16,469 nucleotides of DNA, taken from Octopus sinensis (Eukaryota). The position numbers and the translations under genes are program-made. Location: positions 1 to 16,469 of the forward strand of contig NW_021825172.1 of NCBI RefSeq assembly GCF_006345805.1, in the 5' to 3' direction. Numbering within the stretch: the first letter of the stretch is position 1; each line of letters begins with the position of its first letter. The notes below the pieces were generated by a model. It saw nothing but the letters and a program-made list of their open reading frames with translations, was not told the DNA's origin and made no database searches. Positions 3,661 through 15,497 of this stretch are shown one piece after another.

Positions 3661-3872
3661 AATAATAATAATCTTTCCTACTACAGACACCAGGACTGAA
3701 ATTTGGGGACGGGGCGGTACTCGATAACATAGATCCCCAGTACTCAACTGGTACTTATTTTATCGATCTCGAAATGAGGAAAGGCAAAGTCGACTCCGGC
3801 GGAGTTTTAACTCAGAACCTAAAGACGGACGAAATATCGCTAAGCATTTAGTCCGCCGTGCTAACGATTCTG
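3661..3872 (-). mobile_element. SINE family B monomer copy
   Basis: Collinear with 3955-4119 and 4183-4351: GAAATTTGGGG, CCCCAGTAC..AACTGGTACTT, AAAGGCAAAGTCGAC, AACTCAGAAC, GTGCTAACGATTCTG. Confidence 0.85.
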
Positions 3873-3954
3873 ACTAACAACAACAACAACACCAACAACA
3901 ACAACAACAATAATAATAAATATATTAATAGGAACAACAGTGCTTTACAATATA

Positions 3955-4351
3955 CTTTTCTACTCTAGGCACAAGGCCCGAAATTTTGGGGGAGGGGGCC
4001 AGTCGATTAGATCGACTCCAGTACGCAATTGCTACTTCATTTATCGACCCTGAAAGAATGAAAGGCAAAGTCGACCCCGCCAGAATTTGAACTCAGAACG
4101 TAAAGACAGACGAAATACCTATTTCTTTACTACCCACAAGGGGCTAAGCACAGAGATGACAAACAAGGACAGAAAACGGATTAAGTCGATTATACCGACC
4201 CCAGTGTGTAACTGGTACTTATTTAATCGACCCCGAATGGATGAAAGGCAAAGTCGACTTCAACGGAATTTGAACTCAGGAAGTAACAGCAGACGAAATA
4301 CGGCTACGCATTTCGCCCGGCGTGCTAACGATTCAGCCAGCTCGCCGCCTT
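3955..4351 (-). mobile_element. SINE family B, dimeric/composite copy
   Basis: The block AGTCGATTA...TCGACCC...GAAAGGCAAAGTCGAC...GAATTTGAACTCAG...CAGACGAAATAC occurs twice (~4001-4119 and ~4183-4301) with different tails. B-box GAGTTCAAATTC on the minus strand. Confidence 0.88.
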
Positions 4352-4884
4352 CAATAATAAAAATACTAACAACAACAACAATAATAAAAATATCAATCAT
4401 AACTCTAGTGCTTTACAATATAACCATAAAAACAACGCGTTCGTGGGAGCGTATACGATCGATTATAATGAACGCAGTATCGGTCCTTTATGGGTCGTGT
4501 TAAATATAGCGCTGCAAGTGCAGTGTTTAATTTTCATCGATCAAATTAATTCTTCCCCCTCTGCTCGTTGATTTAACTAGTAATTATATAAATTTTGATG
4601 TTTCCTTGTCGTGTAATATCGTAATTCTAATAATGCATTGCAAGAAATTTGTCAATTTGATTTTTTAATTTTTTATTTTTACCCGTTATTTCACCTTCCA
4701 TTAAAAATTTCTTTAATATTATAAAATATCACTATTAATATTCATAAAAGTACTTGATATACCAACGCGAAAGAGCAATAAATAAATGAATGAACGAATG
4801 AAAAAAACAAATAAATATATATATAAATAAATGAATAACGAAAAAAATAATATGAATGTTTCATCAACAAAGTTTACGAATATA

Positions 4885-5265
4885 GGCGCAGGAGTGGCTG
4901 TGTGGTAAGTAGCTTGTTCAGTCCCATTGCGTGGCACCTTGTCTTCTACTATAGCCTCGGGCCGACCAAAGCCTTGTGAGTGGATTTGGTAGACGGAAAC
5001 TGGAAGAAGCCCGTCGTATATATGTATATATGTATATATGTATGTGTTTGTGTGTCTGTGTTTGTCCCCCAGCATTGCTTGACAACCGATGCTGGTGTGT
5101 TTACGTCCCCGTTACTTAGCGGTTCGTCAAAAGAGACCGATAGAATAAGTACTGGGCTTAGAAAGAATAAGTCCCGGGGTCGATTTGCTCGACTAAAGGC
5201 GGTGCTCCAACATGGCCACAATCCATGATTGAAACAAGTAAACAAGTAAAAGAGTAAAAGAGTAA
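4885..5265 (+). mobile_element. SINE family A copy with two short deletions in the head
   Basis: Starts GGCGCAGGAGTGGCTGTGTGG and ends in (GTAAAAGA)n. Lacks about 23 nt before GTTCAGTCCC and about 9 nt of CCTTGGGCAAGTGTC relative to the other copies. Confidence 0.92.
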
Positions 5266-6087
5266 TAGGAAAAAAATAAGACTAAAGACAAACAAATAAA
5301 GTAATAAACAATATTCTTGATGTGACCATCCTACACTAGGATATATCACTATTAACAGTTCTCTATTATTTTGGTCCTGAAGAAATGAGTAACACATCAC
5401 ATTTAATTAATTTATTATGTATGCTGACTATGTAATTATGTAAAGGATAACTCTGTATTCCATTGAGACAGTAACCGAAACATTTGAGTTATGAATCGTA
5501 TGTAAGAACATACGCGCTTCCGCTGTTTTCTAATTTAAATATTGATGTTTATGATATTTACAGTCCCAGGGAAATTCAACATTTCTTTTTTTCTTGTTAA
5601 CTGCTCTTGTTACAGTATCGTTTCGCAAGTTTATTGACCTTTATAATACTCTGTTATAATATTAACGATTTAGATTTTATCAGCATTTTTATTCCATTGC
5701 TAAATTTGTTTAAAACGGAACGCTCGACCCTGATTCGTTGTCAAAAATTTCAGTTTTCTTCGAATTGAGATCGATCCCCATTACTTATTGTATGAGTCAG
5801 ACCATTATATTATATTAGGACGTAAAGAAACAAACACCGCAATCCAAACTGCGGGCAGACAAACACAATGTATATGAAATCTTACATACATACATATGTA
5901 CAGATTAGTTACAGAATTCTTTAGAATGTAGTCACCTCAACACGTAAGACTCCAGGACTAGGTTGGTACCATAACATTGAGATCACAGTTGTGGAATAAC
6001 CACCATTACGTAGGGGGTCATATGTTAGTAGTGTACTGCTAAGCATCTATTTATTAAAGTGGAGATATAAGAAAAGCCATTCTATAC

Positions 6088-9393: not shown

Positions 9394-9606
9394 CCAAAAT
9401 CGTAAAAGAGATTACGAAAAAAAAATGGGGGGAAGGAAATGAGAAAAAGATGGACATGGTAAGAATTAAGGATTTCATTGATTAGACGATATCGAAGAGG
9501 ATATTCAAACAAGAGAAGCGACAAAAAGTACTCGGAAAAAAGAGACTGGATTGTGAAGAGAGTGCAACATATTATACTGCACTCCAGCGTTGCAGTACTT
9601 GTGTAA

Positions 9607-9637
9607 GAGTGGCTGTGTGGTAAGTAGCTCGCTAACC
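9607..9637 (+). mobile_element. SINE family A, 5' piece of the copy interrupted by the LINE
   Basis: GAGTGGCTGTGTGGTAAGTAGCTCGCTAACC matches the head of the other family A copies (e.g. 4892-4915). Confidence 0.9.
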
Positions 9638-10297
9638 TTCGTCGAAGTCGGACGTGTTTTTTTGGCGGTGAGTCACACGTGTTATCGCACGTGGATAATT
9701 TTTCTGCTGTTCAACGTTTGTTGTTGAATATTTTTGTGAACTCTGTGAATTTTTGTACTTTTTCCCGGTGACGGGAAAAAGTTTGTTGTAAGACTGAAGT
9801 GATTATATGACTTTATTAATATTGTTGAACTTGTTAAAGCCGTTGTAGGCTTTATTGTCGTGCCCCCCCCCCGGCGGGGGTGGCATTTGAACTGTTATCC
9901 TTATTAAGAGAAAAAAAAAAAAAAAAATATTATAGGCTTTCTGTTTTTTTTGGGATAGCAACTGTTGTTGTGAAAAATAAACTTTAGCCATTGTAGGCTC
10001 TATGTGACATCCGCCCGTAGCACGGGCGAGATTTGAACTGTCGTCGTCGTGTTTTGGAAAAAATATAGGTTTCCCTTTTTGGGGATTTCGTTGTGGTGGA
10101 AATATTAATTTCAAATCGTCGTAGACTTTGTTGCTACGTCTCACCCCCCAGCGGGGGTGGGATTTGAACGTGGGACTGCGAACATTAAAAAAAAAAAAAA
10201 AAAAAAATTAATTAATTACTTTTGTCCTCTGTGAGAGGATAATTTCTTTTTTTCGAAAGGTCTCCCAGTTTTGTGGGAAACCAATTACTTTTCAACC
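9638..10297 (+). promoter_or_regulatory. LINE 5' UTR / putative internal promoter with tandem structured monomers
   Basis: DPE-like GGACGTG 9650-9656, AP-1-like TGAGTCA 9669-9675, two CACGTG E-boxes (9676-9681, 9688-9693), and three monomers each carrying ATTTGAAC (9885, 10031, 10162). Function is inferred. Confidence 0.65.
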
Positions 10298-11721
10298 ATG
10301 TCGGTTGAAATAATACATGAGAAATCTACTCTTGAAGAGAGCAATGTTGATGTTGGCAATTGCGCCAACGCTGTTAAAAAGTTTTCGGCAGTTGCAGAAG
10401 TAGCAACCGAAAATATAGATATCTCTGCAGACATGCTGGAGAGATATTTTAAAAGAATGAAGGAGGAGGGAGGTGATGTTGTGATATCGCCCTCCTCCAC
10501 CGTGCTAGAAACGGAAAAGAGGACCGTGGTGTTTAAAACCTTCTGCCCACAAGACAAAAGGTTTAAGCACTTCGGGAAGGAAACTATAGAAATATGCCTA
10601 GCTCCGATATGGAAGGATATAGTGTATATCTCGAGGGGACGGGCATACGGATCCGTTGAGGTTCAATTCTCAGAGGAAAAGGTGGCTCGCGGGCACTCCG
10701 TGTCCCCCCTGAAGACCAAGGAAGTGGTACTTTTTCCAACGTACATGGGGCGACGAACATCCCGTGTAAGGATTAATGAAATCCCACCCAAAGTAGACCC
10801 GAAAGAGGTGGTGGCCGGCCTGTTGTTTAATAGGACGGACCGGATAAACATATTACAGACCACATGTTCCGCCCAACGGCTGTGGTTAGGGCGGAACATA
10901 ACGGTTTTAATACAAGGAAAACAGGAGGACATTCAGGCCCTACCAGAGAGAGTACTCGTTGGGGAGAATGTGGCTCTTAGGGTACATGTGGAAGGCCGTA
11001 AGCCCACCTGTTACCATTGCGGAAAAAAGGGCCACATTCGAGCTGACTGTGAAGAAAAAAAAAAGTTGTTGCAAACACCAGGCCCCTCAAATAACCAAAA
11101 AAACCCCGCCCCCGCAAACACACCAGCCCCCACAAACACAAAACTCCCACCCCCGTTGTTGAGGTGCTAGTCCCCAAACAAAGCACAGAAAAACCCAGCC
11201 CCGGCACGCACAAGTCCCTACATAAACAAAATGACCCAACCCCCTCGGAAGACCCGGCACCAACGGAAAACACTGCGCCGAAAGAAACTGCCACCAGCCC
11301 CTCAGATAACACCATGGAGGTTTCAGAGGGTGGATTCACACCAGTGGAAAAGAAACGTTCCCGTAGACCTTCCCCACCCATATCCCCCACACAAAACAGA
11401 AAAAACGCACCACAGACAACAAAAAAGAAACCCTGCCCATCTGTCCCGGAAGAAAACAAAAATGCTATGTTAATAGAACACGATACGACAGACACGTATA
11501 CAAATGACGAAACTGTAAAACACAAAAATACTACGCTGAACATCCAACACCATGAGTGCAATGATAGAAGAACCCCTATACCGGGAACTAAAGGACAGGA
11601 ACCAGAAGGCCATATGGAAGATCGCGGATTTACCGAATTACGCGAAGAGAGAGAGGAGAAGAAGGGGACGGATCCACGTGTGGTGAGGTCATGCCCCACA
11701 TCTTCAAAGAAATGTAAGTAG
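10298..11721 (+). CDS. LINE ORF1 (gag-like nucleic-acid-binding protein with zinc knuckle), one frameshift
   Basis: ATG at 10298 in ACCATG context. CYHCGKKGHIRADC is a CX2CX4HX4C knuckle. ORF 10271-11170 joins ORF 11164-11721 if one A is added to the A-run at 11140-11143 (reading ...PAPTNTKTPTPVVEVLVPK...). Pro/Thr/Lys-rich tail, about 474 aa reconstructed. A 17-nt spacer precedes the ORF2 ATG. Confidence 0.85.
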
Positions 11722-11738
11722 AACCTTTACTTTTTGTA

Positions 11739-14700
11739 ATGGCATCTCTTAACCTTGGTTGTTTGAATGTGCGTGGTTTGAGTTCGAAGTGGAAGCAGGC
11801 GTGTTTCCTCGACGATCTCAGATCACATGATATGCATGTGATGGTTGCTACAGAGACCAAGCTGGACGGTCTACAAGCCTTCTCGCCTCTCCTGAATGAC
11901 TACGAGAAAATCATGTCTCCCGGTCAGACCGGAGGACGAGGGGGCGTAGTGGTACTGATCCGTAAAAGCTTGGCTCTGCAGACAAGTACAGTCTATGTGG
12001 ACCCTGAAGGTGGGCTGGTCGTCCTTGATGTGACACACAGCAGTAAGGCCTTCAGGTTGATCGGACTCTATGCACCTTGTGCTAGAGGCTTCCAAACTGA
12101 TTTTTATCGGCGCCTAGAGAACTTTCTCGTGACGTCGAAGACTTTAGTAGTATTAGGAGACTTTAATGCTATCGTTGACGTACACATCGATAGTGTTGGC
12201 TCGATCCATAGGAAAGTGAACTCACGTCTCGTGGACCTGCTTAAGCGGTTTCAGCTGGCAGATCGTTACAGACTTGACCATCCGAACGTCCCAGAGTGGA
12301 CCTGGATGAGTGGCGACGGAAGGTTCAAGTCTTATCTAGACAGGATAGTGATAAGAACTAGAGATAAATCTAGTTTTAGTTGTCCACAGCTTGTCCAGGT
12401 ACCCTATACGGACCATAGAATGGTCAAGTGTAGACTGGACATAGATAGCACACTAAAGATAGGAAACGGCTACTGGAAGCTAAACAAGTCTATTTTGACT
12501 TGTGAGGCATACCGCAGTCGGATTAAGGAGTTAGTGCAGAGGGCGTTAACCGGAGGAGTGGTTAACAACCGGTGGTGGTTCGCCCTGAAAAGAGCCATTC
12601 GATTCGAGTCCATTAGGTTTAGTAAGCAACTAAGACTAGATAGGGCTAGAATAGAAGAGCAATTAGCAAAGAAGTTAGAGGAGGCGTTGAGGTTGGGCTC
12701 TGCATCTCACATTTTGGCGGCGAGAACGGCATTAGACCGTCACCTCAAAACCAAACATGAGGGGTGTAGAATCCGGGCTAAAGTACGAACATTGGGCCGC
12801 GAGGGAATTAATGTTGCCGGATGGGCCCGTACGGTAGAAACCCAGCGTGGCAACAATTCCACAATTAGGTCTCTTGTTGATGGAAACGGATGCACGGTGA
12901 AGGAGCGGGACGAGATGTGTGAGGCACTTTACAAGCACTTCGCCGAGTTGTTCGGGAGGTGCGGGACGCTGGATCATGGTGAGGCCCTTAGGGACTTCCT
13001 GTCTGGTGGCCCGCGTCTCTCGGCACGAGAGGCTGAGTGCTGTGAGGGGCCAATCACAGCCGAGGAAGTAATCGAGGCGTTGGGCGAGTGCCCCGGGGAG
13101 AAGTCGCCGGGTCTCGATGGTCTGCCCTATGAGTTTTTTAAAAGTATGCCAGACTTGTTCGGACACCTGCTGGCTGGCGTCTTCGCCAACTGGCAGCAGA
13201 ATGGGAAAATTCCCAAGTCTGCGAGCCGGGGTGTGGTGACGTTAATCAGGAAGGACCCGAGCAAGGGGGACGAGATAGGCAACTTCAGGCCCATAACTCT
13301 GCTGAACACAGAGTTAAAGATTTTGGCCAATGTGCTGGCGAAAAGGTTGGCGCGGGTCGTGGATAAACTTGTCGGAGAAGCGCAAACGTGCGCTATCCCG
13401 GGCAGGACGATACACGACAATCTCCACCTTATACGCTATTCCTTAGAGCGGGTCGGGAAGCTTTCTGGCGCAGGAGGGGCACTGGTACATTTAGACCAGT
13501 CTAAGGCATTTGATAGGGTCGACCATCGGTACTTGGCGGCGGTCCTCGGGGAGGCTGGCCTGGGCCCGATCTTTCGAGGTTGGATCGCTGCTTTGTATAG
13601 CGACATCGAGTCTGTGGTCAAGGTGAACGGCTCTCTTTCGAAGCCGTTCAGGATCGAGCGTTCAGTCCGTCAGGGGTGTCCCCTGTCCCCGCTTCTATAT
13701 GTGTTGGCTCTTGAGCCTTTGCTACGGAAGTTGGAGGCAATAGGGGGCGCACCGCATGATCTATGGTGTGGAAGAGGAGCTACGGCGTACGCGGATGACA
13801 TCTCCATCATCGTGGCAGATGTGGACCAGCTTCCAGTGGTGGAAGAGGCCATCAAAAGCTACGAGGCGGTGGCAGGAGCAAAGGTGAACAAGAACAAGTC
13901 GGTCGGTTTGCAACTCGGCAACTGGAGGGGCAAGCTGATGCCGTCCAATAACGTAGTGGGGCGTTGGACGGAAGGTCCTGTTAAGCTGCTCGGAGTCTGG
14001 TTCGGGCCAGACCTCCAGATAGAGAAAAATTGGAGTGAGGTAGCCGGCAAGGTGACCGCTCTAACCCAGACCTGGTCTGGACGGCGTTATCCTTGCTAGG
14101 GAGGGCGGAGGTGGTGCAGATGTTCATAGCATCAGTAGTCACCTACCGCCTGACCGTGGTGCCTTGCCCCGATTTGTGGCTGAACAAGTTGGAGAGAATC
14201 CTTTTCCACTTTTTGTGGAAAGGAGGGAAGCCACTTGTAAAGCGCTCTGTCTGCTGCCAGAAACCGCTAAAGGGTGGGCTAGGGATGCCTTGGCTGAAGA
14301 TGCGAAAGGTCGCGTTAAGGTTGAGGCACCTCTGGCTTTACTTGGATGGAGAACAGGTGTGGTCACCGCACGTTCGGTTCTACTTTCCGCGATTAACGTC
14401 CTTAACGGACATTGGTAATTGGATCAAGCAGAGACCTAGGCTGGGGGACTGGCAATTGGAGTGCCGTCAGGCACTTCAACTACTCTCTCGGGCGGGCAAT
14501 GCCGGCAACAGGAGTTCCACGCGGATTTCTATAGCGGGTTAGTGGAGTTTAGTTAAGTCCGAAGACGCCTTGGGGGAGACCCTGGGCTACGATGAAAATC
14601 AGTTGACCAACCTGTTCCGGAGAACGTTCGGGCCGGGGTACCTGGATAATTACCAGAAATCCCTGGCCTGGCAGTGTTTCCGTGCGGCGTTACCTGTTCG

Positions 14701-15139
14701 CGACAAGCTGTCAAGGCACGGAAGTGCCGTCTCGCCGACATGTCCGCGATGTGAGCAGGAGGGGAAACCGTCTTGCACGCATTCGTGGAGTGTCCGGAGT
14801 TATCGGGACTGATTGCTTTCGCCGAACAACTGTTGTCAGTGAATGGAAGAGTACAGCTATCAGCGGAGTCTATCATTGAGATTGTGCCACCTCCTTTCCT
14901 CAGCAGGGAAAGGAAGGCTTGTTTTTCCTGCGTAGTAGCCATACTGAAAGAAACAGTATGGAAGACGTGCACGAAAGGTATAGTGACAGGTACCTTTGTA
15001 TCCGGCCAGGGGTTGGTTAACTTTTTCAGTTACCACCTCGGTAGTAAGATCAGGCTGGAGAAGGTGTCTGTCACGAGACATGTTTGCGAAAAGATGGAAG
15101 TCTGTAGCATGCAAGCTGCGTATATCTGGCACCAGGTAA
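11739..15139 (+). CDS. LINE ORF2: apurinic-like endonuclease + reverse transcriptase + C-terminal zinc finger, frameshifted in the last ~1 kb
   Basis: APE motifs LNVRGL, ATETK, GDFN, YLDRI, YTDH. RT motifs KSPGLDG, FRPITLLN, DQSKAFDRV, VRQGCPLSP, YADD, LLGV. Open for 786 codons, then continues through frameshifts near 14086 (RRLSLLGR), 14523 and 14551 (DFYSGLVEFKSED), 14761 (CPRCEQEGETVLHAFVEC = CX2CX8HX4C) and 15061 (SRDMFAKRW). Inferred stop TAA 15137-15139, about 1130 aa. Confidence 0.93.
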
Positions 15140-15345
15140 GTGTGGCCGGATCAAGAAGTAAAGGTTCTACCCAGATGGCTGGTATCCGTGCCCTACTGTA
15201 TAATAACAAATTTTTAAAACTTTATATTGTAAATATTATATATATTTTATTGTAATCACCAACGTTTTAAGCTACTACACCCTATATGTTTGTCTGTAAT
15301 TGTATGTCCCCTCTATGTAACGCCTTAATGGCGAATCTTTCATGA

Positions 15346-15351
15346 AATAAA
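15346..15351 (+). terminator. Polyadenylation signal at LINE 3' end
   Basis: AATAAA overlaps the start of the right-hand duplication; no poly(A) tail follows. Confidence 0.6.
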
Positions 15352-15497
15352 GTAGCTTGCTAACCAACCACATGGTCCGGGTTCAGTCCCACTGCGTGGC
15401 ACCTTGGGCAAGTGTCTTCTACTATAGCCCCGGGCCAACCAATGCCTTGTGAGTGGATTTGGTAGACGGAAACTGAAAGAAGCCCGTCGTATCTATG

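Follow-up and report, generated by a model that had tools for sequence, protein, structure and literature searches.

What are the repeated blocks that precede the first open reading frame of a LINE in Octopus sinensis, and would they act as RNA or as DNA? We analyzed a stretch of 16,469 nucleotides (NW_021825172.1, forward strand; hereafter the window) for which the initial annotation had described three tandem monomers that keep two hairpins each despite changed sequence, and had proposed a structured RNA or a promoter module resembling the monomers of mouse L1, possibly an undescribed motif. To our knowledge, the leaders of invertebrate Tx1 elements have hardly been described. In Octopus vulgaris, L1-Tx1 families have been active recently, with 13 families and 421 insertions reported in the accessible part of PMC13282606. 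We found that the monomers are apparently an undescribed form of repeated LINE leader module, with a putative function and some evidence of conservation.

A Full-Length yet Broken LINE within a tRNA-Type SINE

An L1/Tx1-type LINE spans 9638-15349 (its right end lies at about 15349). The element is full-length yet broken, and it splits a tRNA-type SINE and is flanked by a 16-bp target duplication. Both halves of the split SINE agree with intact SINE copies in the window, which is rich in microsatellites and SINE copies. A second SINE-like repeat occurs in three or four nested copies on the minus strand (3735-4345 and 2228-2330), and the octamer ATTTGAAC is its likely B-box.

The zinc knuckle of ORF1 was matched by the Pfam model zf-CCHC (E 4.6e-05), and an open frame at 11095-11721 resembles the lost tail of this protein. 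A CCHC zinc knuckle in ORF1 is typical of Tx1-clade LINEs. Both matches to ORF1 were from Octopus (2/2). ORF2 matched Exo_endo_phos, RVT_1, and zf-RVT in Pfam, and its best solved structure was human L1 ORF2p (E 2e-54, 188 bits); the score against the ORF of a U2-inserted element, L048, was higher (290 bits). We file the LINE as probably Tx1-type, an assignment made from ORF2 bit scores. The contig of L048 is filed under a bacterium, and at 3887-5476 it carries a Keno-like LINE whose short A-tail abuts a U2 gene cut at its 5' side, with U1 and 5S genes beyond it; insertion into the U2 gene is described as a habit of Keno in the available text of PMC4640811.

The SINE-LINE junction was also spanned by two diverged contigs from run X5 and by one joint found in runs X5 and X9, and the presence of several contigs over one junction may reflect repeated insertion at this SINE site. 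At 15269-15276 the 3' UTR contains AAGCTACT, the complement of an 8-nt stretch in the landing site, with a 7-mer match at 15270. This complementarity may have arisen by chance in an element of 5.7 kb.

Three Diverged Copies of a Two-Hairpin Unit in the Leader

The 660-nt leader of the LINE, upstream of ORF1, contains three units (Table 1), in agreement with the proposal that a module is repeated in the 5' leader. Each unit consists of hairpin A with an RTYGTA loop, a linker of 7-9 nt, a C-rich/G-rich hairpin B, the octamer ATTTGAAC, and an A-tract, in that order. All six stems were present where the initial annotation had placed them, the loops of hairpin A read GTTGTA, ATTGTA, and GTCGTA, and the octamer was indeed invariant, with spacings of 146 and 131 nt (148 and 128 nt for hairpin A). 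The A-tract is 17 and 21 nt long in units 1 and 3 and just 6 nt in unit 2; the tracts start 17-19 nt past the octamer.

Table 1. Features of the LINE and of its insertion site (positions in the window)
Feature	Position	Strand	Details
Target tRNA-type SINE, 5' part	9607-9637	+	A-box-like TGGCTGTGTGG at 9610-9620; matches intact window copies
Target-site duplication, left copy	9622-9637	+	16 bp; 1 mismatch to right copy
Unique head of leader	9638-9825	+	DPE-like GGACGTG 9650-9656; E-box palindromes 9676-9681 and 9688-9693; hairpin 9757-9782
Donor-like sites in head	GTGAG 9668; GTAAG 9788	+	Sequence motif
Unit 1	9836-9927	+	Hairpin A 9836-9853; hairpin B 9861-9885; ATTTGAAC 9885-9892; A17 9911-9927
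B-box-like motif (GTTCAAAT)	9882-9893	-	Invariant motif read on minus strand
Unit 2	9986-10063	+	Hairpin A 9986-9999 (4 bp); hairpin B 10010-10031; ATTTGAAC 10031-10038; A6 10058-10063
Unit 3	10113-10207	+	Imperfect hairpin A 10113-10129; hairpin B 10139-10162; ATTTGAAC 10162-10169; A21 10187-10207
Tether to ORF1	10222-10297	+	Hairpins 10222-10242 and 10259-10282; weak acceptor-like AG 10259 and 10269
ORF1 with CCHC zinc knuckle	10298-11170	+	Premature stop
ORF2 (AP endonuclease, reverse transcriptase, zf-RVT)	11739-15255	+	Four pieces; breaks near 14060-14099, 14540, and 14760-14812
AATAAA at LINE end	15346-15365	+	Overlaps right target-duplication copy 15350-15365; SINE resumes there

Under a null that is agnostic to the motif, any 8-mer present three times at a spacing of 110-170 nt, dinucleotide shuffling of the leader reproduced the arrangement 10 times in 2000, and the periodic conserved blocks thus exceed chance. 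Between pairs of units, 40/63, 45/65, and 34/63 core columns are identical (54-69%), and these conserved blocks alternate with spacers that cannot be aligned. The array was undetected by Tandem Repeats Finder, and GC content over 9601-10400 is 0.39-0.40. We rejected a fourth unit upstream, for which the best match of the monomer model was at 9708-9745 with an E value of 3.8. An upstream ORF of 13 codons (9807-9848) ends within hairpin A of unit 1, and an upstream ATG at 10002 is followed immediately by a stop.

Rfam holds no RNA family that matches the units, in keeping with the suggestion of an undescribed motif: none was reported at the gathering score, and the 19 weak matches up to an E value of 10 were unrelated (best E 0.32). 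A literature search that left Repbase entries, subscription papers, and supplements outside its scope found no description of the module.

Folding and Covariation of the Units

The local fold of each unit included hairpin B. Hairpin A has seven pairs in unit 1 and four in unit 2; that of unit 3 contains one mismatch and is absent from the predicted fold because its loop pairs downstream. When the whole leader was folded, hairpin A of unit 3 and hairpin B of unit 2 were absent. The fold z-scores of units 1, 2, and 3 were -2.8, -1.1, and -3.4 on the plus strand and -2.8, -2.0, and -3.2 on the minus strand. Neither strand is thus favored, and unit 2 is not unusual on the plus strand.

It had also been noted that stem sequences differ while pairing is retained, as if by covariation. 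Both sides do change in 3 of 17 pairs, and to that extent the observation stands; the count was reached in 68 of 500 shuffles and is not significant. The percentage of paired positions across the three units was reached by 17 of 500 shuffles, and 28 of 500 attained the covariation score. These figures are no more than suggestive of covariation.

Recurrence of the Module in Other Copies

Other copies were seen through contigs of public runs, in which part of the stretch was contained in 20 of 24 runs from nine studies; seven runs were compared. The assignment of some runs to RNA is a guess, as none is on record as RNA, and contigs give no strand and display no transcription starts. Run X2 contained at least nine joined forms in which hairpin A of unit 1 is combined with a different hairpin-B sequence and the ATTTGAAC side. 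Most of these forms keep a C-rich/G-rich stem, one of them with the arms CCAC/GTGG, as judged by eye only, because the short sides (18-27 nt) may hide mismatches. Contig depth in X2 was 15816 at hairpin A of unit 1 versus 1500-2900 at the head and ORF1, figures that cannot rank the parts and give no copy count.

Variants relative to the stretch were taken from the matches listed, which comprise 40 of 122 and 40 of 59 difference rows. Among these matches, pairing is kept by 9869 C>T together with 9879 G>A, a change from C-G to U-A in one contig form that occurs in two runs guessed to be RNA, from two studies; the linkage of the two changes in one form is inferred from equal depth. The matches listed also include 9867 C>A, which restores a pair, three variants that are compatible with G-U pairing (the common 10143 A>G and 10113 A>G, and 10140 C>T), and five that break stems (10013 G>A, 10024 G>A, 9848 G>T, 10145 C>A, and 9861 T>C). 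Two of the latter, 10013 G>A and 10024 G>A, are of the CpG type and, by change counts, are uncompensated in run X13. Genomic copies of LINEs decay freely once inserted, so the stem breaks neither refute nor support selection on an active lineage.

In runs guessed to be RNA, contigs extend through the units uninterrupted by a joint (record 7 of X17, 9815-10193). The loose ends before the module agree with one another (0.69-0.85) and are rich in TTGTT, and those after it contain a third small hairpin and an A-tract. This agreement indicates that the module is a part of the leader common to several families and not a free-standing insert with random flanks. Further loose ends, at 9663 and 10251, belong to families with a different leader middle that have in common with this LINE either the head, as far as the T-run following GGACGTG, or the final 50 nt upstream of ORF1. 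Leaders thus appear to be swapped in modules.

Among viral contigs, we found no match to the hairpin A pattern and no relative of ORF2. When metagenome contigs were scanned for a pattern, eight matches were obtained, none of the eight with similarity to ORF1 or ORF2, and we took these matches to be chance.

Paired Leaders in Distant Relatives

A scan of genome contigs yielded 42 loci, of which 39 are head-to-tail LINE arrays in contigs of a single bacterial-genome record. The arrays (L009-L047) are of Tx1 type, with a period of about 6.4-6.9 kb, at least 11 leader types, and, in most, 42-43% ORF2 identity; their contigs are evidently host DNA that contaminates the bacterial record. We sorted 45 upstream regions into 14 clusters and dropped three in which the start codon was misplaced, which left 11 leader types. 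Ten of these were aligned for stems, L011 being left out as unalignable.

The leaders of these relatives are U-rich tracts interrupted by GC-rich stems of 10-14 bp, in which the stems are fixed and the loops vary by tens of bases. At the ORF1 start codon, 10 types have a stem with 94% pairing and nine two-sided cells, which surpasses all 500 shuffles and every slid control; this result is not a probability, because the rows are related and related rows can beat shuffles without structure. In L016 (5411-5431) and nine other leader types, the last base of this covarying hairpin is the A of that start codon, and in 4 of the 10 a pyrimidine-TAG resembling an acceptor lies in the 5' arm. The start-codon hairpin is a candidate translation or splicing switch.

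Five leader types contain a C-run/G-run hairpin, mostly followed by a TTGAA-like motif and an A-tract. A model built from this block matched unit 1 with an E value of 0.05 in the leader and 1.3 in the whole window, and it missed units 2 and 3. In the reverse search, the monomer model gave no match among 13 related loci, and the relatives' leaders have no hairpin A. Pairing in leaders is thus a habit of the lineage, and the homology of the relatives' block to the units is a hint only.

The donor-like site GTAAG occurs in 10 of the 11 leader types (0.24-0.65 expected in each) and is often closed within a stem. In L015 (4550-4633), L019, L009, and L026, a 14-bp stem closes GTAAG and a second stem begins at a U-rich, acceptor-like CAG, which places each end of a possible leader intron in a stem.

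Promoter-like and Splice-like Signals around the Units

The head of the leader is common to other copies seen in contigs. In insect LINEs, the DPE lies at +28 to +32, according to the accessible part of PMC4748587. Applied to the DPE-like motif, this spacing (+28) puts +1 at 9623, where the target duplication begins. Such an arrangement suggests that the head contains the core promoter, with an initiator perhaps taken from the target, and that the units would be transcribed; the units themselves are likely not the core promoter.

Three donor-like sites were found in the head, versus 0.9 expected. Neither AG in the tether (10259 and 10269) passed the pyrimidine filter, and there is no strong acceptor near the ORF1 start codon. 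Of 22 joints, 15 were examined (DNA runs, among the matches listed), and none of them removes the array.

RNA Hairpins, DNA Sites, or Relics?

The explanation that we prefer, tentatively and at slightly less than even probability, is that the units are diverged tandem copies of one leader module that act as RNA hairpins, with a putative function. Its observed basis is the element boundaries, the internal position of the array, the two stems and invariant octamer of each unit, the recurrence in copies, and the stems of the relatives. Transcription would start at the head, with its DPE-like motif, and would place all units within the RNA. The hairpins would then hold the conserved loop and an unpaired UUUGAAC for protein binding, and the bound protein, a host RNA-binding protein or perhaps the element's own zinc-knuckle ORF1 protein, would steer processing, packaging, or translation of the leader RNA; folding in the cell, binding, and the effect on the fate of the RNA are steps that we infer. 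Selection would act on active lineages only, and single genomic copies would decay. The shuffle-tested periodic blocks, the prediction of hairpin B in every local fold, the further joined forms, and the compensatory change at 9869/9879 all argue for RNA hairpins, as do relatives at 43% ORF2 identity that keep stems around variable loops and a covarying stem at the start codon. Against them stand the nonsignificant covariation among the three units, folding that is equally good on the minus strand, the stem-breaking variants in copies, and the absence of hairpin A from the relatives' leaders. In addition, hairpin A is conserved in sequence, loop included, which would fit a DNA site equally well.

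The last point leads to a rather unlikely alternative, in which the units are enhancer or barrier monomers at the DNA level, composed of an inverted B-box-like TFIIIC site, a palindromic factor site, and nucleosome-excluding poly(dA), with incidental hairpins. The octamer is the reverse complement of the B-box core, conservation stops at the first G of the B-box, and the octamer also occurs at 4085 and 4268 in SINE-like repeats. The retention of hairpin A in sequence and the lack of strand bias in folding agree with DNA sites, and two- or threefold duplications of 70-100 bp are known in mammalian L1 5' UTRs (PMC5381506, available text). On the minus strand, GWTCRANNC is complete in units 2 and 3 (two of three units; 0.20 expected in shuffles), and a single B-box match is weak because many motifs were looked for. 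Unit 1 is without the last C, a position called critical where the available text of PMC12498455 gives the B-box consensus, and this counts against TFIIIC sites. By eye there is no conserved A-box 30-60 nt upstream on the same strand, where a T-run and an AT-rich spacer lie instead, and an ARAGORN scan reported no tRNA. TTTGAAC is present in 4 of the 11 related leader types without a full B-box there, and hairpin B changes its sequence and loop length yet stays paired, unlike a factor site. It is unlikely, too, that the units are functionless, tolerated relics, either old duplications or captured pieces (tails of neighboring elements or the 3' end of 5S rRNA), in which palindromes survive or template switching restores them. 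Crocodilian Tx1 families have captured U1/U2 heads, as the accessible text of PMC4494074 describes. The nonsignificant covariation and the many stem-breaking variants are what relics would display; C-runs and G-runs pair easily, and an A-tract closes every unit. The 3' half of hairpin A resembles the 3' end of the 5S rRNA of L048 (2/300 and 12/300 shuffles; 18 tests), and unit 2 resembles a hairpin in the 3' tails of relatives (11, 15, and 18 of 300 shuffles; 72 tests), and neither likeness survives multiple testing. Neutral decay predicts neither conserved blocks between unalignable spacers at 54-69% identity nor their recurrence in at least nine forms, and the agreement of the loose ends contradicts a free-standing insert. 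We also rejected an origin from the SINEs of the window, the target SINE, or the LINE's own 3' UTR (no likeness above shuffle level), and from U1/U2 snRNA or SL RNA (no Rfam match; alignments to U1 and U2 of L048 at shuffle level or in A-runs only).

Two further proposals concern what the leader RNA might do. It is improbable that the units form a psi-like packaging signal within a leader intron, such that ORF1 would be made from spliced RNA and the zinc-knuckle ORF1 protein would select unspliced RNA with the hairpins, with promoter and intron thereby retained in each new copy. This proposal draws on the donor-like sites in the head, on GTAAG in 10 of the 11 related leader types, and on the unspliced contigs; its precedents are SART1, whose CCHC knuckles package its mRNA according to the accessible text of PMC4120745, and an analogy with retroviruses. 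It is opposed by the weak acceptor in this copy and by the absence of a spliced form among the contigs, the runs guessed to be RNA having been compared over 9800-10200 only. An undescribed class of self-cleaving ribozyme in every unit seems very improbable. Ribozymes in the leaders of other LINEs (R2, L1Tc, and the Schistosoma twister variants, from partly available sources), the conserved loop and linker, and a three-way junction that units 1 and 3 could close (judged partly by eye) speak for it. Unit 2 does not retain the closing helix, Rfam offers no match, and we found no hammerhead core, HDV-like fold, twister motif, or pistol motif on either strand, using descriptors of our own. The units also lie 200-530 nt inside the element and are crossed by contigs; a cut within them would remove the head from the RNA, which counts against self-cleavage.

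Comparison with Known Systems

In retroviruses, psi is a cluster of hairpins between the splice donor and the start codon of a zinc-knuckle protein. The layout of the octopus leader would be analogous, with no sequence relation, a donor-like site that is predicted, and a weak acceptor. If the module acts in packaging or splice control, it would be a retrovirus-like cis signal for LINEs. The leader ribozymes of R2 and L1Tc (HDV-like) and of Schistosoma (twister variants) likewise put structured RNA in a LINE leader; the octopus units are without a matching fold or catalytic motif, and the HDV-like cases known from the accessible sources lie at the very 5' end.

The A module of Dictyostelium TRE5-A is tandemly repeated. 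Like the octopus LINE, TRE5-A is an L1-type element, and its 5' region, made up of modules A, B, and C, is modular and tied to Pol III-type loci (PMC5633606, available text). The same text reports a demonstrated Pol II promoter function for the A module, which can be replaced by another promoter; for the octopus units such a function is hypothetical. Tx1L, Keno, and Tx1-Mar, as far as the accessible parts of PMC4494074 and PMC4640811 describe them, share with this LINE an AP endonuclease and reverse transcriptase and insertion into another repeat, here with a 16-bp duplication; the target here is a tRNA-type SINE, and a triplicated hairpin leader is not described for them in those parts.

Rodent L1 monomers are closely similar to each other. 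The likeness to mouse L1 monomers that had been proposed proved weak: the octopus units occupy no terminal position, are not nearly identical to one another, and lack the character of a CpG island, and the promoter-like motifs are found upstream of them, in the unique head. Rodent monomers, by contrast, make up the 5' end of the element and contain CpG islands together with start signals (PMC5381506, accessible text). The mouse and rat arrays of that text and the octopus leader have in common a tandem arrangement within the 5' leader of a LINE, a unit length of 130-150 nt, and a short tether to ORF1; here the units are internal, behind a unique head of ~190 nt, with cores that are 54-69% alike and about 39% GC, and they are built on hairpins. 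The duplications in L1 of horse, elephant, opossum, hyrax, and rat (PMC5381506) are closer in their low copy number within an L1-superfamily leader, so a repeated leader piece is not new as such. Those mammalian leaders are GC-rich with a YY1 head, and conserved hairpins are not described for them in the available text; the octopus element belongs to an invertebrate, is of Tx1 type, and encodes a zinc knuckle in ORF1. If the units are just a duplicated promoter piece, they extend the pattern known from mammals. As a compact, triplicated module reused across families, they provide a test object for how a LINE might mark its own RNA or insulate its promoter.
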